From positions 18,997 to 82,996 of the forward strand of contig JAJRXD010000018.1 in the NCBI GenBank assembly GCA_024276465.1: DNA of 64,000 nucleotides, in the 5' to 3' direction. Each line of letters starts with the position of its first letter. The first letter of the stretch is position 1. The DNA is from Deltaproteobacteria bacterium. GTDB taxonomy: Bacteria > Desulfobacterota > WTBG01 > CAIYCZ01 > CAIRTM01. Shown here one piece after another: positions 4,632 to 34,798 of the stretch. The position numbers and the translations under genes were made by a program. The notes below the pieces were generated by a model that made no database searches, had not been told where the DNA came from, and worked only from the letters and a program-made list of their open reading frames with translations.

Positions 4632-5639
4632 TCAATTCAGCATTTTTTCCAGAAGAACTAATTGTTCCTGGTTGCCGATAGCTATGAAAATATCACCCTT
4701 TTCGATCTTTGAGCTGGCATGGGGCTGCAGAGTAAAAGACTTGTCATCCTTTCGAATAGCAAGCACCAGGGCACCTGACTTTTGTCTTATTTCCGCTTCA
4801 TGCAGTGTTTTGCCTATCAGGGAAGAGTGGTCACTTACAACAATTTCCTGCAGGTTTGATTCCTCAAGAGTTGTTCCATGAATTACCTTGTCTAAAAAAT
4901 CGGTTGTTATCGGCTTAATCGCCCATGCAGCCATTCTTTTTCCTGAAATATAGTAAGGTGAAATAATCCTGTTTGCACCAGCCATTTTCAGTTTTTTTTC
5001 TGTATCCCTTTCACCTGCACGGGCAATAATGTATAGATCAGGGTTTAAAGCTCGAGCTGAGAGAATGACATAGACATTGGCCACATCTGAATCAGCAGTA
5101 GTTATAAGTCCTTTTGCTGATTTTATTCCAGCCTTTTCCAGACTTTCATCCGAAATAATGTCACCAATGATGTAAGGAACACCCTTTTGTTCAAATTCAG
5201 CTGCAGTTTCAGGTTTTCTGTCTACTACCACATATTCAACATTTGCAGCATCAAACTCTTTTGCCACCTGATGTCCGGTTCTGCCCAGGCCACAAATTAT
5301 AAAATGGCTCTTCATTTCCCTAATCTTCCTGTTCATTTTTTTCTTTCTCCTGTACCCAAGGATTTCACCTTCAATAATTATTTCCATCAACTGTCCGGCA
5401 GCAAATATGGCTGTTCCGACTCCACCTATAATTATGAACATTGTTAACAGTCTGCCCGGAGTAGAAAGCTCGTGTGTCTCCTGAAACCCTACTGTAAACA
5501 GGGTTATAATAACCATGTAGATAGCGTCAAGAAAAGGCCATCTTTCAAACAGCATATACCCTGCTGTTCCAATAACAGCCACGACTAAAAGGATGATTGC
5601 CGATGGTATCAGTTGCCTGAAAGGGTTTTTTGTTTTCAT
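4632..5639 (-). CDS. potassium channel protein with RCK/TrkA domain
   Basis: Two TM helices flank a pore/selectivity-filter-like TVGFQE. Rossmann TrkA-N follows (FIICGLGRTGHQVAKEF), then a TrkA-C-like C-terminus. Confidence 0.7.
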   Translation of the reverse strand: MKTKNPFRQLIPSAIILLVVAVIGTAGYMLFERWPFLDAIYMVIITLFTVGFQETHELSTPGRLLTMFIIIGGVGTAIFAAGQLMEIIIEGEILGYRRKKKMNRKIREMKSHFIICGLGRTGHQVAKEFDAANVEYVVVDRKPETAAEFEQKGVPYIIGDIISDESLEKAGIKSAKGLITTADSDVANVYVILSARALNPDLYIIARAGERDTEKKLKMAGANRIISPYYISGKRMAAWAIKPITTDFLDKVIHGTTLEESNLQEIVVSDHSSLIGKTLHEAEIRQKSGALVLAIRKDDKSFTLQPHASSKIEKGDIFIAIGNQEQLVLLEKMLN

Positions 5640-7055
5640 GCTTTTTGCAGTTAACCCCAGGATTGCGCCCCCTGAACACTTACAGTATGGCGGCAGAAAA
5701 AAATCAACAAAGCCTTGCCGGTCATTGAAATCCGGTGGAAATCAAGGCACATCAATACGTTAGCTGTTGAGTTATTTGTAACCATTTTTATAGTCATAAT
5801 CAAGAAAATAATCAATGGCTGCAGGATGTCCCGATTTCAGGGGTATGAATTAGCTTTTTACAAAGCTGCAAAGATTCTATGTTTGATGGTGTAAAAGAGA
5901 AGAGTAAAAGCCTGGAGATTATCTGTTTTCCCTTTACCACCCGAACAGATTATCTGTCAGGTGGCAAGGGAAAATAAAAAAGGAGGAAAAATTTAAATCA
6001 GAAATTTTCAGTATCATGTTTCTACTGCTAATTCTGAGTTAGAACATAGCAGGAATGTCTTTGTACCCCAGAGAAAGCTGGTCAAACACAAGCTGATCAT
6101 ATGAATTTTGTACTGACCCGCGTTTCTCATTACGTATTCCTGCATATGTTAGTGTTACTGTAACAACTATGGCAATAACCGTGATTAGTATTTTCTTTGT
6201 TATAACTTTCATTTTTTGTTTCTCCCTGTTATCCGGTTTTGAATATTTAAGCCGCTTCTCAGGCATATTTTGAATGGTTGTCTTCCTGCAGCGTTACTTT
6301 ATAGACAAATATAGAGCAGATGTATGAATTGACTATGGAAAGAGTGTAAAAGTTTTGGTAGAATTGTAAAAATTGTAAATTTAAGCCCGCATTGATGCTG
6401 GCCTGGTACTGTAATGTCGGTTTCTATTGTGTTACGGGAGCTGTTGTACCACCACTTTCTACAGTCCCAGAGTCCCGGGGCTCAGGTATCCGAAATCAAT
6501 TGCGTTGATTCTGTCGCGTCTGCCGAATTTATTGCTGCTGGTGGAGCCACCGGAAAAGAATTGAAATTTTGACCCGCGCTGCTTACCGCACTCCATTCAT
6601 CCATTGTGTCCTGTATGACCTGCAGCATTTCATTAACAATAACTTAAGACAATCACATGAAACACAGTCACTGAATATACCCTGCTTAATCCGCATATGC
6701 CACTGTTAAATTGGAATTCCAGTCTGAGACCTGGTTTATTGTTGTCAAGATTTTTTTACTCATGAGCTGTCAAAATTTTGGCGCTATAAACTGAATTTTT
6801 ATTACCTGCAAACCCCTTTTCCGGATTGCAAGGAAGTTTTATACGCTGTCCATCACCAGTGTTTTAGTGATATTTTAAAAGCAAAATCAAGTAACTACAG
6901 GCGCTGAAAAGCTTTATAACAGGTTTTTCTCCCGGACTGTTTTTTAACAAGTGTACTTAAGGCATAATCTTTGCATTTTTGTACAAAACAGGAATGATCA
7001 AGCAACAAAACCAGATAAATTTTACACCTTTCTACTAAGTTGAGGAGGTAAGACC

Positions 7056-8501
7056 ATGCCGCAACAACTGGCAAAAAAAGAGACAATTACAAAACTGGAA
7101 GATAGAAGAAACAATGCATTTATCAGAACAAGACAGAGAAGAAATTTTGACAGGAGGGGGTCGTTCAGGGTAGGGGCGAATGCCCTTGCTTTGTTAACTG
7201 AAGGAGATGTAAGAGTATCAGGTATTGTAAAGGACATCAGTGAATCAGGGGCTTGTGTGGAGATTAAAGGCATTGAAAAAAAAGAATGGCAGAGCTTTAA
7301 ACTGGCAGTCCCTATTATGCTTGATAAAAAAATAAATTGTGTAATGAAATGGTCTGAAAACATTAACAGTCACGGGATTTACGGATTAAAATTTTTAGAT
7401 TTAGACAGCGATGAAAAAACCGACTTAAGAAGGAGATTTTTATTAGATGAGACCCTGCTAATGGCACATGCTGCAAGCGTAGTAAAAAAAACAGATGATT
7501 TGCAGATAAAACAGGAGATAAGAGGTTTTTTCCTGATTGATTTAAAGATGGCACTTGAAAGCTTTATTGTAATTGACAAAATGGTTGCAACTAATGAGGA
7601 TGACAGGGAAATTAATGAGAAGTGTAGGGAAACATTAGATAAACTGGCAGCTGCCGGAGACAGGCTGGAGCTGTCTGTAAATGATGCGAGCCTGACCAAG
7701 GCTGTTAAGCAGAGGGTAAGATTTTTAATAGGTCAATTCATTTATCAATCCACAGTTTTCAGGAGGGGATTTGAAAAGCCGCGGGGTTATCCGGGAGATT
7801 ACATGATGCTGGAGATTGTATATAACGATGACGAAGTGTCTGAGGGCATTGGGAAATATATTGACCGGTATGGTCTGGATGTTCCTTACTCAATTGCTAT
7901 TCGTTTGAGAAAGGATAAAATGAAGGAAATTCTATATGATTTTATTAACAACAGCACAGAAGACAAGCTGAATATTTTAAACCTTGCATCAGGGGCCTGC
8001 AGAGACATAAGGGAAATGTTTGACCGCCCTATAAAATATAAAGGTAAAGTAAACCTTATGTGCATTGACCAGGATGAGGTGGCTATAGAATACGCGCATA
8101 AAAAGATATCAGAAATTGATACTGGAAACATAGATATTAATCTGATTCAGGGCAATATTTTAAGGCTGGAATCCCTTGAAATTGGTGCAGACAACAGCCT
8201 TGACATGGTTTACAGTATAGGAATTGCAGATTATCTGCAGGACCGGATGCTGGATAAGATATTTAAGAACTGTTATAAAAAGTTAAAACCAGGTGGCAAG
8301 CTTGTAATAGCATATAAAGACAGGGAAAGACATAAGCCCGTTTCCCTGAACTGGTATGGAGACTGGTGTTTTGTCCCAAGAAACGAGGAAGAATTTACAG
8401 GGCTTATTAATGCTGCTATGGGCAGAGAAAATATTTCTGTTAGCATTGAAAGGGAAAGTTCAGGAGTAATATTTTTTGCTGAGATAACCAAAAACAGATA
8501 G
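7056..8501 (+). CDS. PilZ domain fused to class I SAM-dependent methyltransferase
   Basis: N-terminus carries the PilZ c-di-GMP motifs RxxxR (RTRQRRNFDRR) and DxSxxG (DISESGACV). C-terminus carries methyltransferase motif I (ILNLASGACRD) and a Rossmann fold. Strong RBS GAGGAGG. Confidence 0.7.
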   Translation: MPQQLAKKETITKLEDRRNNAFIRTRQRRNFDRRGSFRVGANALALLTEGDVRVSGIVKDISESGACVEIKGIEKKEWQSFKLAVPIMLDKKINCVMKWSENINSHGIYGLKFLDLDSDEKTDLRRRFLLDETLLMAHAASVVKKTDDLQIKQEIRGFFLIDLKMALESFIVIDKMVATNEDDREINEKCRETLDKLAAAGDRLELSVNDASLTKAVKQRVRFLIGQFIYQSTVFRRGFEKPRGYPGDYMMLEIVYNDDEVSEGIGKYIDRYGLDVPYSIAIRLRKDKMKEILYDFINNSTEDKLNILNLASGACRDIREMFDRPIKYKGKVNLMCIDQDEVAIEYAHKKISEIDTGNIDINLIQGNILRLESLEIGADNSLDMVYSIGIADYLQDRMLDKIFKNCYKKLKPGGKLVIAYKDRERHKPVSLNWYGDWCFVPRNEEEFTGLINAAMGRENISVSIERESSGVIFFAEITKNR

Positions 8502-8507
8502 TTTGCA

Positions 8508-8547
8508 AAGTCCCTCCGGGATAAACTGCCGGAGGGACTTTGTTTTG
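8508..8547 (+). terminator. rho-independent terminator after the PilZ-methyltransferase gene
   Basis: Perfect 13-bp stem AAAGTCCCTCCGG/CCGGAGGGACTTT followed by GTTTTGC. Confidence 0.7.
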
Positions 8548-8775
8548 CATATACAAGTTCTTTATCTTTATAAACAGATCTGCTTCAGGATTGCTTACAG
8601 CCAAACTCAGTCCCACCGTAAAAACAAAATACAATTCAAGTATTAAGCAGCGAATCCGATAATATTACTTTATTTTTTTGGTTTTTAGAGCTTCTGACAA
8701 AGAGTTTTGTACCTCTCTCTACAGAGGTCTGTTTTTTTATGCTGGATGATTTATTGTGATCCGCGAAGGCAGGAA

Positions 8776-10725
8776 ATGAACGCGAAAGATGTGACAAAAA
8801 AGCAAAAGGATTCCGTTAAATTATCTGACTCTCCTGGAATGCGCGAAATGGGGTTAAATGCACTTACGCTGTCATTTCCTGCATATCTTGAAAAAATATT
8901 TATAGAGGACTACTTTGAAAAATCCCTGCAGCAGGTAAAAATCTCTGTTTTTCTCGCGATTGTATTCTTTGCACTGTTCGGAATACTTGATGTGGTATTG
9001 GTTCCGGAAATAAAGAAAGCGCTGTGGGGGATACGCTTCGGCTTTATCTGCCCCGGACTTATTGTAATTCTAATCATCTCATTTTTCCCTGTTTTCAAAA
9101 AACACATGCAGGTTTCTGTTTCCGTGTCAATGATATGGACCGGCTTTGGCATTATCGCGATGGTTGTAATTGCACCACCTCCAGCAAGTTTTTCCTACTA
9201 TGCAGGCTTGATTCTGGTGTTCATGTACGGGTACTGCTTTGTCAGACTGCGGTTTGTATGGGCAGCATTTGCAGGCTGGACAATAGTGGTTTTTTATGAA
9301 ATTGCGGCCATAGGAATAGGGCAGACCCCTGTTCCTGTTTTGGTAAACAATAATTTTTTCTTCATCAGTGCCAATATAATTGGCATGTTTGCCTGCTATT
9401 CAATGGAGTATTATGCAAGGAAAGATTTTTTCATGGCCCACCTTCTTGAAATAGAAAAGGAAAAAGTAAATGCTGTGAACCGTAAGCTGGAACAACGGGT
9501 CGAGAAGCGCACAACCCAGCTGGTTAAAGCCAATGAAGAGTTGAGGCGTGAAATGGAAGAGCGAAAACTGATGCAGCAGGAACTGTTACAGGCCCAGAAA
9601 ATGCAGGCCATAGGCACACTGGCAGGAGGGATTGCACATGACTTTAATAATATTCTTACAGCCATTATCTCCTATTCAGAGATAGGATTATATAAGAAGG
9701 ATATGAATAAAGAAAAAATAAAGTACAGTTTTGAACAGATTCTTAAAGCAGGGGGGAGGGCAAAAGAGGTAATAAAGCAGATTTTAACTTTCAGCAGGCA
9801 GCGTGATGAGCAATTAGGGCCGGTTAAGATAGGCGGGGTTGTGAAAGAAGCTTTAAAACTAATCTCTGCAACTCTTCCAAAAACCATTGATATCCGCGAG
9901 AACATAATGACTGATTCAGACACGGTTCTTGCAGATCCAACACAAATTCATCAGATATTAATGAATCTTTGCACCAATGCAGAACATGCCTTGAGAGAAA
10001 AAGGCGGTGTGATGGAAATAAGCCTTGGAGAAATCTGCATTCATTCTGAATCCCAGCAGCAGAATTTTGATCTGCTTCCGGGAACATACCTTGATCTCAG
10101 TGTAAAGGACACAGGTGCTGGAATGGAAGCTTCTGTAATGGAGAGGATTTTTGATCCTTTCTTTACCACAAAAGGACCGGCTGAGGGAACAGGTATGGGG
10201 CTTTCAGTGGTACATGGAATTGCAAAAAGCCATGGCGGAAAGGTAATAGTTGAAAGCGCTGTTGGAAAAGGCACCACGGTTCATGTGTTTTTTCCCAAGG
10301 CTGACATTAATGAAACATCTGCTGTCGAGAAAGAAGCACAGATGCCATTGGGAAATGAACGGATTCTTTTTGTAGATGATGAGGAAGCATTAATTGAAGT
10401 AGGCCAGGAAATGATTGAGGAATTCGGGTATGAGGTTGTCTGTAAAACTGATCCTGTTGAAGCTTTGGCTGTTTTTCGGGCCGAACCTCAAAAATTTGAT
10501 CTTGTTATCACCGACAAAAGTATGCCCCACATGAATGGTTTTGAGTTTGTTGAAAAATTGCTGGAAATCAGGCCTGATACGCCCGCGATTTTGTGTACTG
10601 GATTCAGCAGCACGGCTGAACTGGAAAAGGCCAGGGCCATAGGTTTCAGGGAGTTGATCATGAAGCCAGTGGTTATGCGTGAGATGGCTGTGACCATCCG
10701 CAGGGTTCTGGATCAGATCAATTAG
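8776..10725 (+). CDS. hybrid sensor histidine kinase / response regulator (membrane)
   Basis: Multi-TM N-terminus and a coiled coil. HisKA H-box (IAHDFNNILTAI). HATPase G-boxes. C-terminal receiver domain (ILFVDDEE...DLVITDKSMP). The ORF opens at 8707, but the ATG at 8776 has an AGGA RBS. Confidence 0.8.
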   Translation: MNAKDVTKKQKDSVKLSDSPGMREMGLNALTLSFPAYLEKIFIEDYFEKSLQQVKISVFLAIVFFALFGILDVVLVPEIKKALWGIRFGFICPGLIVILIISFFPVFKKHMQVSVSVSMIWTGFGIIAMVVIAPPPASFSYYAGLILVFMYGYCFVRLRFVWAAFAGWTIVVFYEIAAIGIGQTPVPVLVNNNFFFISANIIGMFACYSMEYYARKDFFMAHLLEIEKEKVNAVNRKLEQRVEKRTTQLVKANEELRREMEERKLMQQELLQAQKMQAIGTLAGGIAHDFNNILTAIISYSEIGLYKKDMNKEKIKYSFEQILKAGGRAKEVIKQILTFSRQRDEQLGPVKIGGVVKEALKLISATLPKTIDIRENIMTDSDTVLADPTQIHQILMNLCTNAEHALREKGGVMEISLGEICIHSESQQQNFDLLPGTYLDLSVKDTGAGMEASVMERIFDPFFTTKGPAEGTGMGLSVVHGIAKSHGGKVIVESAVGKGTTVHVFFPKADINETSAVEKEAQMPLGNERILFVDDEEALIEVGQEMIEEFGYEVVCKTDPVEALAVFRAEPQKFDLVITDKSMPHMNGFEFVEKLLEIRPDTPAILCTGFSSTAELEKARAIGFRELIMKPVVMREMAVTIRRVLDQIN

Positions 10726-10737
10726 GGAAGATGTCTC

Positions 10738-11583
10738 ATGATAATAAAACATTTTAATACCAGCATAATACGCAGTTTGATCCTGTTTGCAACAGGCATT
10801 ATTGTTTGTTTCAGCACTGAGGCCATTCATGCAGGAGAAAAAAAGATCAACATACCTTTTTTTGATGGAATAAAACTTCAAATCTCAAACGCTTACCCCA
10901 AACTGACTAATGCCAATCACATGATAGAGGATGTAAACAAGACGGCCGGAAGCAGCCTGAGGGACTGGGATACCATAGACATTTTTACTCTGGATGTTGT
11001 GTTATGGAAAGACCTTTCGAAATATTTTAAAACTGATTTTGCAGTGTCAGTATCAACAGGTTCCCTGGTTTCATCAAGCAATGGATTTAACGGTACACCA
11101 CTTGATATGGGCATCAGGATGCGCCAGAGATACAGCACAATTGAGTTTTGGACAAACTTTTATTATTACCCTTTTACTACTGATTACAGGGATGAGTACA
11201 GATCAGGCCACATTATTGAACCTTTTATTGCTGCTGGAATTGGTTATACATTTTTTAGAAGCGAATCTGTTTTCAAAATCAGAAAGGGGAATCTGCTTTA
11301 TAACAGGATAAGAAACAACTGGAATAAAGGCGAATGGGCTTATAAAATGATGACAGGGTTTAATGTTAATCTTGGCAATGTTACTCCTGAGCTTGACAGG
11401 TGGGTTATTACCTGTTCTGCCTTTTATATATGGAACCGTCTGAAAGGGCGTTCCAATCTGCACCTGACAGATGGGATGACTGTGTTTGGGAGACCAGTCA
11501 ATGTCAATATTCAAAAAAGCAACAGAATGGACATTGATCTGACAGGCCCCTGCTTTTCACTGGCTATTGGCAGATACTTTTAA
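10738..11583 (+). CDS. putative outer-membrane beta-barrel protein
   Basis: Signal peptide. Alternating aromatic/hydrophobic pattern. C-terminal ...IGRYF ending in Phe. Lies 13 nt after the kinase stop, so likely co-transcribed. Confidence 0.45.
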   Translation: MIIKHFNTSIIRSLILFATGIIVCFSTEAIHAGEKKINIPFFDGIKLQISNAYPKLTNANHMIEDVNKTAGSSLRDWDTIDIFTLDVVLWKDLSKYFKTDFAVSVSTGSLVSSSNGFNGTPLDMGIRMRQRYSTIEFWTNFYYYPFTTDYRDEYRSGHIIEPFIAAGIGYTFFRSESVFKIRKGNLLYNRIRNNWNKGEWAYKMMTGFNVNLGNVTPELDRWVITCSAFYIWNRLKGRSNLHLTDGMTVFGRPVNVNIQKSNRMDIDLTGPCFSLAIGRYF

Positions 11584-11659: not shown

Positions 11660-12478
11660 TTAATGAAATTCCAAACTGTTATCAGCAACAACCTGCACGA
11701 CCTCAGGATCAAACTGTGTTCCAGATGACCTCCTTATCTCCTGCAACGCATCTTCGACTGAAAAAGCCTTTCTGAAAGTAAGGTCAGAGCGAAGAAAATC
11801 ATATGCCCCGGCTACAGAAATTATCCGGGAGTTTAATTCGATGTCAGTGCCACCGATTTCATCAGGATAACCCCTGCCGTCGAATCGTTCATGGTGATGC
11901 CTGATAGAAGAGGCATACGGGCTTAAGTGTTCTATTTCCGATACGATTTTTCCTCCAATCTCAGGATGTTTTTTTACCAGAAAAAATTCCTGGTCTGTCA
12001 GCCGTCCCGGCTTTCCAAGAATGACTTCACTTATGCCAACTTTCCCGACATCGTGAAGAAGGGCACTCAGTTTTAAGTCATGAATTTTCTGTTCGGTGAA
12101 TCCCATTTTCTTTCCAATTGAACATGACATGTCAGCAACCCTTGAAGAATGGCCTGAAGAAACTATGTCACGGGTGTCAAGCGCTTTTATGAGAGATTCC
12201 ACAGTACTGACTAATGTGCCTAACAGGCTGTTATAGGCAGTCAGAAGTTCCGGGGTTGAATAATTTTCAAGTGTCTTTTCCTGCTCAACAGCAAATCCCA
12301 GGTCTTTTAAATCGCTCAGCCTGATTCTGTGGTGTCCGCCGGGAGTTTTTATGGCCTTTAATTTTCCGGAGTAGATATAGTTTTTAATTGTCTGAGTGGT
12401 TACATTTAATAACGTGGCAGCTTCGCGGGTGTTGAGGATCTCTTTTGAGGCAAAATCATTTGATCTTTTTAGCATCAT
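11660..12478 (-). CDS. HD-GYP c-di-GMP phosphodiesterase with N-terminal helix-turn-helix
   Basis: HD...HHERFDGRGYP motifs, i.e. the HD-GYP signature. N-terminal excisionase/MerR-like HTH (LLNVTTQTIKNYIYSGKL). Confidence 0.75.
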   Translation of the reverse strand: MMLKRSNDFASKEILNTREAATLLNVTTQTIKNYIYSGKLKAIKTPGGHHRIRLSDLKDLGFAVEQEKTLENYSTPELLTAYNSLLGTLVSTVESLIKALDTRDIVSSGHSSRVADMSCSIGKKMGFTEQKIHDLKLSALLHDVGKVGISEVILGKPGRLTDQEFFLVKKHPEIGGKIVSEIEHLSPYASSIRHHHERFDGRGYPDEIGGTDIELNSRIISVAGAYDFLRSDLTFRKAFSVEDALQEIRRSSGTQFDPEVVQVVADNSLEFH

Positions 12479-34435: not shown

Positions 34436-34798
34436 ATGGCTGCAATTGAACGCAGAACTAATAAACGCATCCCGGCCAAATTTAAAATCAACTATATACA
34501 TGACAAGGATTATCTTATCTCTTACAGCAGGGACATTTCCGTGGATGGCATGTTTGTCTACACGGAAAATCCGCCTTCAGTAGGTGAACTGACCAAACTG
34601 ACTTTTTCCATTGCTGATCTCGACCAGGTAGAGGTAACCTCAAAAGTTATGTGGGTTAACACTGCAGGTTTAAAAAAAGATGCGGGAATGGGTGTGCAGT
34701 TTGTCAATCCCCCTGCTGCTTTAAAAAAAGCCATACTTGAGATTGTCAATCGTGTTGCGGTGCTTCAGGGGGTTGATCTGGGCAACTCTGCAGAATAA
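34436..34798 (+). CDS. PilZ domain protein
   Basis: RxxxR (RRTNKR) and DxSxxG (DISVDG) motifs. 120 aa. Confidence 0.7.
   Translation: MAAIERRTNKRIPAKFKINYIHDKDYLISYSRDISVDGMFVYTENPPSVGELTKLTFSIADLDQVEVTSKVMWVNTAGLKKDAGMGVQFVNPPAALKKAILEIVNRVAVLQGVDLGNSAE

Follow-up and report, generated by a model that had tools for sequence, protein, structure and literature searches.

A PilZ domain fused to a PhcB-like methyltransferase and paired with a PhcS-type sensor kinase: a candidate for c-di-GMP-gated signal synthesis in a Desulfobacterota-type bacterium

The window analyzed here, a stretch of 64,000 nucleotides of genomic DNA, contains a gene encoding a 481-aa protein with a PilZ domain at its N-terminus and an S-adenosylmethionine (SAM)-dependent methyltransferase at its C-terminus. 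It is followed on the same strand by a hybrid sensor kinase gene and a third, unannotated gene, and then by a convergent gene for an HD-GYP protein. The features are listed below.

7042..7048, forward strand: Shine-Dalgarno sequence GAGGAGG, read from the sequence, with 7 nt from its end to the ATG at 7056
7056..8501, forward strand: gene for the PilZ::PhcB-like SAM methyltransferase, 481 aa, ATG start (open reading frame, Pfam domains, 108 homologues, AlphaFold model)
7149..7433, forward strand: PilZ domain, aa 32-126 (PF07238, conserved motifs, domain profile, modelled fold)
7152-7169, forward strand: RRxxxR motif, aa 33-38, within the PilZ domain
7233-7250, forward strand: DISESG motif, aa 60-65, within the PilZ domain
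7449..7949, forward strand: helical bundle, aa 132-298 (helices with pLDDT mostly >90, invariant motif in two alignments, PF12147, hhalign to the PhcB clade)
7776-7802, forward strand: KPRGYPGDY, the family hallmark, aa 241-249, invariant in both family alignments
7965..8492, forward strand: class I Rossmann SAM methyltransferase core by fold and motifs, aa 304-479 (Pfam matches above cut-off, fold, conserved residues)
8707..10725, forward strand: hybrid sensor histidine kinase gene (Pfam, BLASTP, membrane-domain profile, five TM-like segments)
8711..8728, forward strand: terminator-like hairpin and T-run by consensus scan only, inside the kinase open reading frame as called from a TTG
8899-9471, forward strand: PhcS-type polytopic membrane domain, kinase aa 65-255, with a YYAGL motif at aa 164
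Within the kinase gene, forward strand: HisKA, aa 303-366 (H311); HATPase, aa 410-532; receiver, aa 553-663 (Pfam)
10738..11583, forward strand: third cassette gene, 281 aa, with an N-terminal signal-like hydrophobic segment and the C-terminus ...IGRYF
11660..12478, reverse strand, convergent: gene with an excisionase/BldC-like HTH and an HD-GYP domain (Pfam HTH_17 and HD_5, NCBIfam; intact HHERFDGRGYP)

The N-terminal domain matched PF07238 in the Pfam search (E=5.5e-10; 39.9 bits against a cut-off of 22.5) over positions 1-98 of the 102 in the model. Its RRxxxR motif reads R33-R34-G-S-F-R38 and its [D/N]hSxxG motif D60-I-S62-E-S-G65; across 44 homologues with identity down to 27%, no substitution occurs at R34, R38, or G65, and S62 is kept in at least 90%. 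The AlphaFold model contains the six-stranded barrel and C-terminal helix expected of a PilZ domain (strands within aa 39-113, helix at aa 118-129, pLDDT ~70-92). A profile of the domain matched only c-di-GMP-binding PilZ domains among solved structures, with the motifs in register (Alg44, MotI/YpfA, MapZ/PA4608, PP4397, VCA0042, and BcsA); the assignment to solved structures rests on this profile search, the single sequence being insufficient and returning just non-significant S1-domain matches. Judging from these results, the N-terminal domain is a canonical PilZ domain that is predicted to bind c-di-GMP.

It could be argued that the domain is instead a structural or protein-interaction module, like PilZ variants that do not bind, the methyltransferase being constitutive or regulated in some other manner, as the β-rich N-terminal domains of other clades (the Bdellovibrio clade and PhcB) lack intact motifs and family forms of ~330-360 aa have no N-terminal domain altogether. 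The N-terminal domain of the Bdellovibrio clade carries RxxR and N[IV]SxFG, and PhcB has N-L-Q-R-x-S at a weakly aligned position of the PilZ motif. We consider this explanation distinctly unlikely, because the four motif residues that would contact c-di-GMP are invariant or nearly so even at 27% identity, which argues for selection on ligand binding, and because PilZ domains in fusion proteins were noted to retain both the binding motifs and the ability to bind (PilZ review).

The region that follows is part of the enzyme. The full-length AlphaFold model (pLDDT 90.3, pTM 0.86) contains no disordered linker, and aa 132-298 form a folded helical bundle that holds the invariant KPRGYPGDY. This bundle belongs to the conserved enzyme module, because the PF12147 match (aa 196-375) bridges bundle and methyltransferase and the hhalign alignment with the PhcB clade begins at aa 158, inside the bundle; it probably serves the enzyme as the cap that binds the substrate. 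Downstream, Methyltransf_25 (PF13649), Methyltransf_31 (PF13847), Methyltransf_11 (PF08241), and Ubie_methyltran (PF01209) all matched above their cut-offs at aa ~303-425. The Gly-rich SAM loop L-N-L-A-S-G313-A-C (N309..A311-S-G313) is a relaxed GxGxG in which G313 is invariant, D338 and D340, the acidic residues of C-I-D-Q-D-E, are conserved throughout the family, and Y386, G389, D392, Y393, W437, and R442 are further conserved residues of the core. The first-pass annotation had described a PilZ domain with RxxxR and DxSxxG joined through a linker of ~150 aa to a class I SAM-dependent methyltransferase, and had suggested a search with domain models for both ends. Both domains were borne out, with PilZ and methyltransferase models above cut-offs, whereas the linker was refuted. 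By fold and motifs, aa 304-479 are a class I SAM methyltransferase with a predicted activity, and c-di-GMP-gated methylation, as had been proposed, is the most natural reading of the fusion.

A fold search of the model gave 1,152 PDB matches at E<=0.001. The 50 best-listed matches are methyltransferases, except for the uncharacterized 3OCJ and one protein annotated solely as a pericyclic-reaction enzyme; the characterized ones among these 50 are almost all small-molecule methyltransferases (Rv2258c, SgvM, SibL, CurJ C-MT, Coq5, CmoA, and GPP-MT). The top structural match to cap plus Rossmann domain is 3OCJ of Bordetella parapertussis (Foldseek E=1.5e-11; TM-score 0.60 normalized to the target), which differs in having no PilZ domain and to which the family profile showed no significant sequence similarity. 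No NCBIfam model reached its cut-off for the methyltransferase, the sensor of the kinase, or the third gene.

The architecture is recurrent. About 75 of the 108 homologues in the index combine the enzyme module with a precomputed Pfam match to PilZ, or align clearly across PilZ, and when homologues are clustered at 50% identity, ~34 of the best 150 clusters have an alignment that includes the PilZ region. This answers the suggestion of the first-pass annotation to look for the same architecture elsewhere, and its remark that the combination was not known as characterized holds for the literature as well, where we found no description of a PilZ::SAM-methyltransferase fusion; the homologues are named in databases merely as PilZ domain-containing or methyltransferase domain-containing proteins. 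In sister clades, a cNMP-binding domain occupies the position of PilZ (P0099; L063 at E=8e-16). Judging from these domain arrangements, gating by second messengers appears to be a theme across the family.

PhcB is the quorum-sensing signal synthase of Ralstonia, whose products are methyl 3-hydroxymyristate and methyl 3-hydroxypalmitate, and PhcS is the receptor of the PhcB-made signal. To our knowledge, this signaling chemistry has been studied so far only in Ralstonia and its relatives. Many close homologues of the window protein bear the KEGG name of PhcB at JGI. A Paraburkholderia plasmid-borne operon with the phcBSRQ layout (a methyltransferase of 468 aa, a kinase of 445 aa, and two response regulators), found by tblastn against plasmids, serves here as the PhcB/PhcS reference in place of the Ralstonia sequence. 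Its methyltransferase, which carries R22 and KPLGYAGDY, shares 65-92% identity with proteins from Paraburkholderia, Cupriavidus, Massilia, and Pseudoduganella; NCBI names one of them 3-OH-PAME biosynthesis protein, and a Ralstonia entry is absent among the 120 listed homologues. Two orthology markers fit in this operon: R22, which is conserved in Ralstonia, Cupriavidus, and Paraburkholderia PhcB homologues of at least 64% identity (PMC6989110), and the position of the H-box histidine of the kinase, which is 233 here and 230 (H230) in Ralstonia PhcS (PMC11960443). The marker positions PhcS L161 and PhcQ R154 are unmatched, and the reference copy may therefore be a paralogue.

The enzyme module of the window protein is, by sequence comparison, homologous to this PhcB group of Burkholderiales proteins anchored on the Paraburkholderia operon. 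BLASTP aligned aa 225-476 with the Paraburkholderia protein at E=3e-16, with ~22% identity in the enzyme module, and hhalign of the window clade against the PhcB clade gave 99.6% (E=1.2e-24) over 311 columns, corresponding to window aa 158-480. The motif KP[RL]GY[AP]GDY is common to the window protein and the PhcB clade; a genome scan with the narrower pattern KPRGY[AP]GDY misses the Phc clade, which has KPLGY. A homologue search with P0104, which JGI names PhcB, returned the Bdellovibrionota clade only. The substrate had been called unknown, which is correct only in part, as the module is homologous to the synthase of a methyl 3-hydroxy-fatty-acid signal. We considered and rejected the window protein as a PhcB orthologue: the ~22% identity, against at least 64% within the Phc clade, places it in a different clade of the wider family, and because identity is so low the substrate could differ completely from that of PhcB. 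Fatty-acid or ACP genes are not consistently found near family members, with one in a single locus (L094) alone. The N-terminal domains of PhcB and of the window protein aligned by hhalign at E=0.07, and when the PhcB and Bdellovibrio N-terminal domains were tested as possible degenerate PilZ domains, trimmed profiles gave non-significant values of E=0.03-0.19; the AlphaFold model of the PhcB N-terminal domain is all-β with a helix, and its pLDDT of 54 is too low for its Foldseek matches to mean anything.

The gene downstream of the methyltransferase gene encodes a hybrid kinase, whose start is more likely the ATG at 8776 than the mechanically called TTG at 8707; the kinase genes of relatives are called 200-280 nt past the methyltransferase stop. 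BLASTP aligned the window kinase with the Paraburkholderia PhcS-like kinase at E=6e-30, through the membrane region including [YF]YAGL, and a profile of 25 PhcS-seeded membrane domains, none of them from the window subclade, matched aa 65-255 at E=1.1e-23. This membrane sensor domain with YYAGL is MASE8-like, widespread, and orphan.

The association of the two genes is conserved well beyond this organism. In a survey of ~90 loci from many phyla, the pairing was found in ~60 of ~75 evaluable loci (Bdellovibrionota, Leptospira, Verrucomicrobia, Myxococcota, and Desulfobacterales among them), mostly with overlapping or abutting reading frames, the downstream gene usually lying at -8 to +30 bp and encoding 4-6 TM segments. 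When the PhcS-like membrane domain alone was searched against 1,931 ORFs, 48 of the 54 match rows were the ORF directly downstream of the methyltransferase. The outputs of 50 such neighbors are diverse, including nucleotide cyclases (17), histidine kinases (12), SpoIIE/PP2C (6), and HD-GYP (4). Because the membrane domain is constant, the outputs are interchangeable, and the methyltransferase is the only constant partner, the downstream protein has the signature of a ligand sensor. In the PilZ clade, a polytopic membrane sensor is encoded immediately downstream in 11 of 12 loci. A close relative (L002, 55% identity) has no kinase neighbor; in more distant PilZ-bearing members (L006, L007, and L094) the next gene encodes a HisKA_7TM sensor, which has a different membrane domain, and the operon of L009 includes REC-HATPase and REC-HD-GYP genes. 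The methyltransferase and kinase genes of the window subclade are separated by ~200-280 nt with a terminator-like hairpin between them, which makes their co-transcription uncertain. Judging from the membrane-domain profile and gene order, the window gene and the gene of a PhcS-type membrane sensor kinase make up a conserved pair.

This conservation bears on two other explanations. One is that the kinase is adjacent by coincidence and that the enzyme belongs with the common tailoring methyltransferases of secondary metabolism, a view to which the resemblance of the module to methyltransferase domains inside polyketide synthases, and to the CurJ and AprA methyltransferases, lends some color. It is strongly disfavored and, in our judgment, extremely improbable, considering that the pairing recurs across so many phyla and that genes of a biosynthetic cluster are absent from both sides of the window gene. 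The other is that the enzyme is a CheR-like protein methyltransferase that methylates the adjacent sensor for adaptation, with PilZ acting in cis as MapZ acts in trans on CheR1. In its favor, the enzyme has the general layout of CheR, with helices in the N-terminal part and a Rossmann domain after them, and it forms a tight pair with a sensor; in addition, relatives gave weak sub-threshold matches to PF01739 (E=5e-5 to 0.05), and the family profile weakly matched Bacillus subtilis CheR (5FTW; E=1.3e-4). However, the window protein itself had no match to CheR families (PF01739) at E<=1 in Pfam, CheR is absent from the 50 best-listed fold matches, and PhcB, the characterized member of the family, yields a small-molecule methyl ester. 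Furthermore, the partners share only the integral-membrane domain and differ in their cytoplasmic outputs, so that a common cytoplasmic methylation site is unlikely. We therefore regard the CheR-like explanation as very unlikely.

As for the other surroundings, the third gene had no Pfam or NCBIfam match, and an unannotated gene of 275-305 aa lies at the same position in L001, L004, L091, L092, and L093. Its product is 62% identical to the counterpart in L004, where the methyltransferases share just 50%, and is possibly an outer-membrane β-barrel; the DUF3108-like genes of L002 were considered as relatives and are not related. In one relative (L009), a FadL/Toluene_X porin gene adjoins the methyltransferase locus. 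The HTH-HD-GYP protein, with its intact motif, is probably a c-di-GMP phosphodiesterase, and it is possible that its gene belongs to the methyltransferase/kinase system; signs of c-di-GMP signaling in the organism are this intact HD-GYP gene, at a distance of 3 kb, and another PilZ protein, which stands alone. Rubrerythrin and multihaem cytochrome genes are among the neighboring genes, and from these and the taxonomy of the homologues the host appears to be anaerobe-like and is probably a member of the Desulfobacterota. Terminator-like sites in the region are no commoner than chance, promoter-like sites are ~2-fold enriched (24 against 15.2 +/- 3.9) with none individually compelling, and no riboswitch or known RNA was found in 5600-8800, where the sole match was a sub-threshold RsaA (E=0.41).

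The product of the enzyme could also stay in the cell. Here a c-di-GMP-gated small-molecule or lipid methyltransferase would modify a membrane lipid or fatty acid, and the sensor would monitor the state of the membrane, with no quorum sensing involved. The fold resembles both lipid and small-molecule methyltransferases, the partner domain is membrane-embedded, identity to PhcB is only ~22%, and the window contains neither a sign of export nor the PhcA/PhcR/PhcQ circuit. We nevertheless think this rather unlikely, because the only characterized members of both families are the synthase of a diffusible methyl ester and its receptor, and because the conserved secreted or outer-membrane-like third gene and the porin of the one relative hint at envelope traffic.

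We prefer the explanation that the two genes are a Phc-like synthase/receptor pair in which the fused PilZ domain lets c-di-GMP gate signal synthesis, although the chances of this specific explanation seem to us evenly balanced. The methyltransferase and the kinase probably form a signaling system with c-di-GMP-dependent signal production. In the Phc-like explanation, the methyltransferase would transfer a methyl group from SAM to a lipophilic precursor, most likely to the carboxyl of a fatty-acid-derived molecule, giving a membrane-permeant signal. Binding of c-di-GMP at the N-terminal RRxxxR/DISxxG site would switch the enzyme on or off, presumably by a route leading from the C-terminal helix of PilZ through a two-residue break to the helical cap, and the signal output would thus report the c-di-GMP state, sessile or motile, of the cell. 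The adjacent PhcS-type kinase would detect the secreted signal within the membrane and phosphorylate its own receiver and downstream partners; feedback on c-di-GMP may come from the HD-GYP protein nearby, and likewise from sensors of other loci whose terminal domain is GGDEF, HD-GYP, or nucleotide cyclase. The results establish what the domains are, that their motifs are conserved, that both genes are homologous to the Phc-like pair, and that the pairing itself is conserved; from these we infer the chemistry of the product, its secretion and sensing by the neighbor, the binding of c-di-GMP, and the regulation with its sign.

A broader proposal, which we hold as tentative and somewhat doubtful, is that Phc-type signaling is an ancient two-gene module, made up of a KPxGYxGDY methyltransferase and a PhcS-type sensor domain and distributed over at least 10 phyla. 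The synthase would be gated by c-di-GMP through PilZ or, in the sister clade, by cAMP/cGMP through a cNMP-binding domain, and the receptor would often have its output in the synthesis or breakdown of second messengers (nucleotide cyclases, GGDEF, and HD-GYP).

If these explanations are true, the window gene would encode the first autoinducer synthase to be gated by c-di-GMP, and the level of c-di-GMP, reflecting the surface or biofilm state, would decide the emission of the signal. Phc chemistry would extend to uncultured anaerobes, Bdellovibrio, Leptospira, Myxococcota, and others, a candidate ligand class would be at hand for the MASE8-like sensor domain, and a relay would turn intracellular nucleotide signals into a lipid-like signal between cells and vice versa. 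The comparison also suggests a function for the uncharacterized N-terminal domain of PhcB, to which the adaptive R22C mutation maps (PMC6989110).

Compared with the Phc system, the window protein has a similar total length (~465-480 aa) with a β-rich N-terminal domain of ~125 aa before the enzyme, and its gene likewise adjoins that of a histidine kinase whose polytopic membrane sensor domain is of the same type. In contrast, the N-terminal domain of PhcB has no recognizable PilZ motifs or Pfam match while that of the window protein is a canonical PilZ, the window kinase, being a hybrid, contains a receiver domain of its own, and the conserved 281-aa secreted-like protein is encoded instead of PhcR, PhcQ, and PhcA, equivalents of which are absent from the neighborhood of the window gene. 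The host is also different, a Burkholderiales plant pathogen in the former case and an anaerobe-like bacterium, probably of the Desulfobacterota, in the latter.

Control of a SAM-dependent methyltransferase by a c-di-GMP-loaded PilZ domain has a parallel in MapZ (PA4608) of Pseudomonas aeruginosa, which is among the solved PilZ domains matched by the window profile and whose C-terminal PilZ helices mediate the contact with CheR1. MapZ acts in trans on a chemoreceptor (protein) methyltransferase, whereas the PilZ domain of the window protein is in cis with a PhcB-type small-molecule methyltransferase. BcsA and Alg44, the latter being the top solved match to the window profile, resemble the window protein in having a PilZ domain in cis, with intact RxxxR and DxSxxG, that gates an attached activity or, in the window protein, is predicted to do so; their PilZ domain is C-terminal rather than N-terminal, and their output is the synthesis or secretion of polysaccharide at the membrane rather than a soluble methyltransferase. 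Most of the links known to connect quorum sensing with c-di-GMP lead from an extracellular signal to the turnover of c-di-GMP; a PilZ domain fused to an autoinducer-type synthase would hard-wire the reverse link in one polypeptide. In the RpfR-RpfF (BDSF) system of Burkholderia, c-di-GMP machinery is directly linked to a fatty-acid-derived quorum-sensing signal synthase; there, a GGDEF-EAL protein acts as the receptor that binds the signal and is also in contact with the synthase, and neither a PilZ domain nor a methyltransferase is involved.

The PilZ::methyltransferase gene and the genes that follow it in the window are arranged as listed here.

GAGGAGG ending 7 nt 5' of the ATG at 7056, plus strand: ribosome-binding site, from the sequence
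7056..8501, plus strand: PilZ::methyltransferase gene (ORF, 481 aa, ATG start)
8707..10725, plus strand: hybrid kinase, next gene 3' of the methyltransferase, with a multi-TM N-terminus, HisKA, HATPase, and receiver domain (Pfam)
10738..11583, plus strand: third cassette gene, 281 aa, signal-like N-terminus, C-terminal ...IGRYF
11660..12478, minus strand, convergent: HTH-HD-GYP protein, 272 aa, excisionase/BldC-type HTH_17 plus HD-GYP with intact HHERFDGRGYP

The first-pass annotation had placed a PilZ domain fused to a class I SAM methyltransferase at exactly 7056..8501, and these coordinates were borne out. Pfam PilZ matched aa 32-126 (E=5.5e-10; 39.9 bits, curated cut-off 22.5), a segment covering the model almost entirely, and the two motifs claimed, RxxxR and DxSxxG, are present as R33-R34-G-S-F-R38 and D60-I-S62-E-S-G65. 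R34, R38, and G65 are invariant and S62 nearly invariant in an alignment of 44 homologs with identity down to 27%. When all solved structures were searched with a profile of the N-terminal domain, 17 sequences came up, and 17/17 were c-di-GMP-binding PilZ domains, including Alg44, MotI/YpfA, MapZ/PA4608, PP4397, VCA0042, and BcsA, with RxxxR and DxSxxG in register. Judging from these sequence comparisons, the all-PilZ outcome exceeds chance by far, and we consider it unlikely that the PilZ domain here is a non-binding one. An arginine-rich extension conserved in the window's subclade, DRRxNPFIRTRQRRNFDRR (aa 16-34; 7056..7130), precedes the canonical RRxxxR. In effect it duplicates the DRR element; it is missing from shorter Omnitrophota-type members and might be a site for a second c-di-GMP or for a partner. 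The window also encodes a second PilZ protein, which stands alone (34436..34798, plus strand; 120 aa; PF07238, E=8e-14).

The class I methyltransferase assignment also held, with several Pfam families above cut-off on aa ~303-425, while the stretch of ~150 aa previously called a linker is instead a confidently modeled helical bundle belonging to the enzyme (AlphaFold2; motif; PF12147 span). The AlphaFold2 model, built on a 44-sequence alignment (pLDDT 90.3, pTM 0.86), consists of a PilZ beta-barrel (aa 39-113) with a C-terminal helix (aa 118-129), a bundle of long helices (aa 132-298, pLDDT mostly >90), and a Rossmann methyltransferase (aa 304-479). Its sole low-confidence segment is the arginine-rich N-terminal arm (aa 1-27), as expected of a segment that becomes ordered on c-di-GMP. 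The bundle carries K241-PRGYPGDY-249, invariant in the 44 close homologs and also when 12 highly diverse members from across the family are aligned, and the match to PF12147 (Methyltransf_20; Pfam) at aa 196-375 thus bridges the bundle and the Rossmann domain. Because shorter family members (~310-360 aa) are bundle plus Rossmann domain alone, the enzyme unit is aa ~132-481, to which PilZ is joined directly.

Sequence search found no close solved relative of the window methyltransferase. The best solved-structure fold match was 3OCJ, an uncharacterized Bordetella protein, and nearly all other fold matches listed were small-molecule methyltransferases, among them Rv2258c, SgvM, SibL, CurJ C-MT, Coq5, CmoA, GPP methyltransferase, and phosphoethanolamine methyltransferases; CheR was not found among the best 50. 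The module also matches a domain within an annotated type I polyketide synthase on Enterobacter ludwigii plasmids NZ_CP134637.1 and NZ_CP134634.1 (tblastn matches H10/H11 and H73/H74; E about 1e-14 to 1e-19).

Many close homologs carry the JGI name [quoted passage not shown] which is the KEGG name of PhcB. The PhcB methyltransferase produces methyl 3-hydroxymyristate and methyl 3-hydroxypalmitate, the quorum-sensing signals of Ralstonia, whose sensor is the histidine kinase PhcS (PMC11960443). Our PhcB reference was not a Ralstonia sequence but an operon of Paraburkholderia graminis plasmid pPHS1_P, obtained by tblastn against plasmids, whose gene order is the phcB-S-R-Q layout.

pPHS1_P gene 1: methyltransferase, 468 aa
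pPHS1_P gene 2: histidine kinase, 445 aa
pPHS1_P gene 3: response regulator, 134 aa
pPHS1_P gene 4: response regulator, 344 aa

Several features tie its methyltransferase to the PhcB ortholog group. Full-length identity is 65-92% to proteins from Paraburkholderia ("Regulatory protein"), Cupriavidus, Massilia, Janthinobacterium, and Pseudoduganella, and NCBI names one of them 3-OH-PAME biosynthesis protein. PhcB homologs at 64-100% identity, with R22 conserved, were reported in Ralstonia, Cupriavidus, and Paraburkholderia (PMC6989110); R22 is present in the Paraburkholderia protein and invariant in 18 PhcB-clade members. The H-box histidine is residue 233 of the Paraburkholderia kinase, compared with H230 in Ralstonia PhcS (PMC11960443). 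The marker positions PhcS L161 and PhcQ R154 had no match in the Paraburkholderia operon; the plasmid-borne copy may therefore be a diverged paralog, and "PhcB clade" is used with this caveat.

The window methyltransferase matched the PhcB-like protein by BLASTP over aa 225-476 (E=3e-16), with KPRGYPGDY opposite KPLGYAGDY. Clade-against-clade hhalign gave a probability of 99.6% (E=1.2e-24, 311 columns), aligning window aa 158-480 with PhcB aa 132-463; identity is only about 22%, so the window protein is a distant family member and no ortholog of PhcB. The window kinase matched the PhcS-like kinase at E=6e-30, membrane region included (SFSYYAGLIL opposite QSLFYAGLTL). When PhcS-like residues 1-205 were compared with the 1,931 ORFs in a set of 95 loci, made up of the window and those fetched, 48/54 match rows were the ORF directly 3' of a family methyltransferase, the others being nearby extra paralogs or over-extended versions of those ORFs. 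We therefore have hardly any doubt that the kinase is adjacent for a reason other than coincidence. A profile of 25 such domains, none from the window's subclade, matched window kinase aa 65-255 (E=1.1e-23; 191/205 model positions). MASE8 is the nearest Pfam model, weak or sub-threshold in most members.

A motif scan for KPRGY[AP]GDY, one genome per species, yielded 319 relatives in Bdellovibrionota, Leptospira, Verrucomicrobia, Myxococcota, Desulfobacterales, Calditrichia, Gemmatimonadota, Ignavibacteriota, Acidobacteriota, and others. Eighty loci were retained. Their proteins are mostly 460-520 aa long, with ~220-280 residues N-terminal to the motif, and the 3' neighbor is usually on the same strand at -8 to +30 bp with 4-6 TM-like segments. 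Outputs of the neighbors were distributed as follows, with GAF/GGDEF or PAS forms also found.

Nucleotide cyclase: 17/50
Histidine kinase: 12/50
SpoIIE/PP2C: 6/50
HD-GYP: 4/50

The membrane domain of the window kinase is significantly resembled by 30/50 neighbors, and YYAG stands at the same place in 33/50. An integral-membrane domain that stays the same while the outputs change is the hallmark of a sensor, and the constant genomic partner of this domain is the family methyltransferase. One could suppose that a CheR-like enzyme modifies the adjacent sensor; this is very unlikely, because the window protein has no CheR match, its fold neighbors are small-molecule enzymes, and the partner proteins have only the membrane domain in common. 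Within the PilZ-bearing clade, a polytopic membrane sensor lies immediately 3' in 11/12 loci examined, L002 being the one with no sensor neighbor, and more distant PilZ members (Elusimicrobiota, Omnitrophota) have HisKA_7TM sensors 3', one ending in GGDEF.

In Leptospira alstonii (L012, 6800..12129), the methyltransferase is followed by three consecutive PhcS-type membrane-domain genes, a paralogous sensor array. Bdellovibrio species (L019-L049) have a family member of ~490 aa in one or two copies (e.g., L033 and L042 in one genome), with N[IV]SxFG present in the N-domain and RxxR in place of RxxxR; in the sampled loci its 3' neighbor is usually a protein of ~480 aa that has 4-5 TM-like segments as well as the PhcS-type membrane domain. 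The nucleotide-cyclase (Guanylate_cyc) neighbors probably include Bdellovibrio ones, individual confirmation being for the metagenomic L008 alone.

The N-terminal domain varies among clades. A Desulfobacterales clade of MAGs (L059-L076) and one indexed homolog (P0099) have a cNMP-binding domain where the window has PilZ (E=8e-16). In L063, the stop codon of such a methyltransferase (5170..6771) overlaps the start of the next gene (6771..8585), whose 604-aa product has six TM segments and includes the PhcS-type membrane domain. The N-domains of the Bdellovibrio, Leptospira, and PhcB clades are beta-rich without a Pfam match; hhalign comparison of the PhcB and Bdellovibrio N-domains with PilZ by trimmed profiles gave no significant similarity (E=0.03-0.19). 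In the PhcB clade (L090, 6440..7846; alignment A4) the N-terminal ~125 residues are extremely conserved and predicted all-beta plus one helix (model pLDDT 54), and an adaptive R22C mutation in this region of PhcB lowers quorum-sensing responsiveness (PMC6989110). It may be a cryptic regulatory domain, possibly PilZ-derived.

Six loci (the window, L001, L004, L091, L092, and L093) have a common cassette of PilZ-methyltransferase, MASE8-like HK-REC, and a predicted secreted protein of 275-305 aa. Between the window and L004, identity is 62% for the third protein and only 50% for the methyltransferases, which are thus the less conserved. The 281-aa window protein had no Pfam or NCBIfam family match and may be an outer-membrane barrel passing a hydrophobic signal. 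About 275 nt (8502..8775) separate the methyltransferase from the likely kinase start (ATG 8776), and this gap contains a terminator-like hairpin (8711-8728), with no known RNA family match; most other clades have overlapping genes. Y1 transposase genes (IS200/IS605-type) lie directly beside the cassette in L001 (5139..5861), L091 (4202..4936), and L004 (11169..12149), which hints at cassette mobility; none is found upstream in the window.

The convergent 272-aa protein would be a DNA-binding c-di-GMP phosphodiesterase. The words HTH, DNA-binding, and MerR are all absent from an HD-GYP census preprint, so this architecture may be undescribed. With this convergent HD-GYP gene and the stand-alone PilZ at 34436..34798, the host organism clearly uses c-di-GMP.

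Most likely, the window pair is a synthase and receptor of the Phc type in which the synthase takes c-di-GMP as an input; we infer its functional steps as follows. The methyltransferase would produce a small, lipophilic, methylated molecule, which the analogy to PhcB suggests would be a fatty-acid methyl ester. In the model the PilZ C-terminal helix leads to the helical cap past a two-residue break, and c-di-GMP on the fused PilZ would alter activity through this helix. The product would then be sensed within the membrane by the adjacent PhcS-type kinase. An acyl-carrier protein and a receiver-domain gene just 5' of one PilZ-methyltransferase (L094, 4267..4982) and a FadL/Toluene_X outer-membrane channel 5' of another (L009, 3856..5304), each seen once, are compatible with an acyl-derived hydrophobic product. 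That the product stays intracellular, as in lipid modification, is the less probable reading, to which we still give some weight.

The PilZ::methyltransferase architecture is recurrent, not a one-off: PilZ plus the enzyme module occurs in about 75/108 indexed homologs, and an exhaustive search gave 3,368 cluster representatives (50% identity) at E<=0.001, with 247 of them reaching E<=1e-30; among the best 150, about 34 align across the PilZ region. The earlier statement that the combination is not known as characterized agrees with full-text literature searches, which returned no description of a PilZ::SAM-methyltransferase fusion and no paper connecting PilZ with PhcB. The fusions listed in two PilZ surveys are to glycosyltransferase, GGDEF, EAL, chemoreceptor, REC, HD-GYP, CheC, and kinase domains, with no methyltransferase fusion among them. 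The window pair would extend Phc-type signaling far beyond Burkholderiales, and it suggests a direct link from c-di-GMP to signal synthesis, testable with one protein. In the known PilZ-methyltransferase link, MapZ-CheR1, PilZ acts in trans, whereas the window PilZ is fused in cis.
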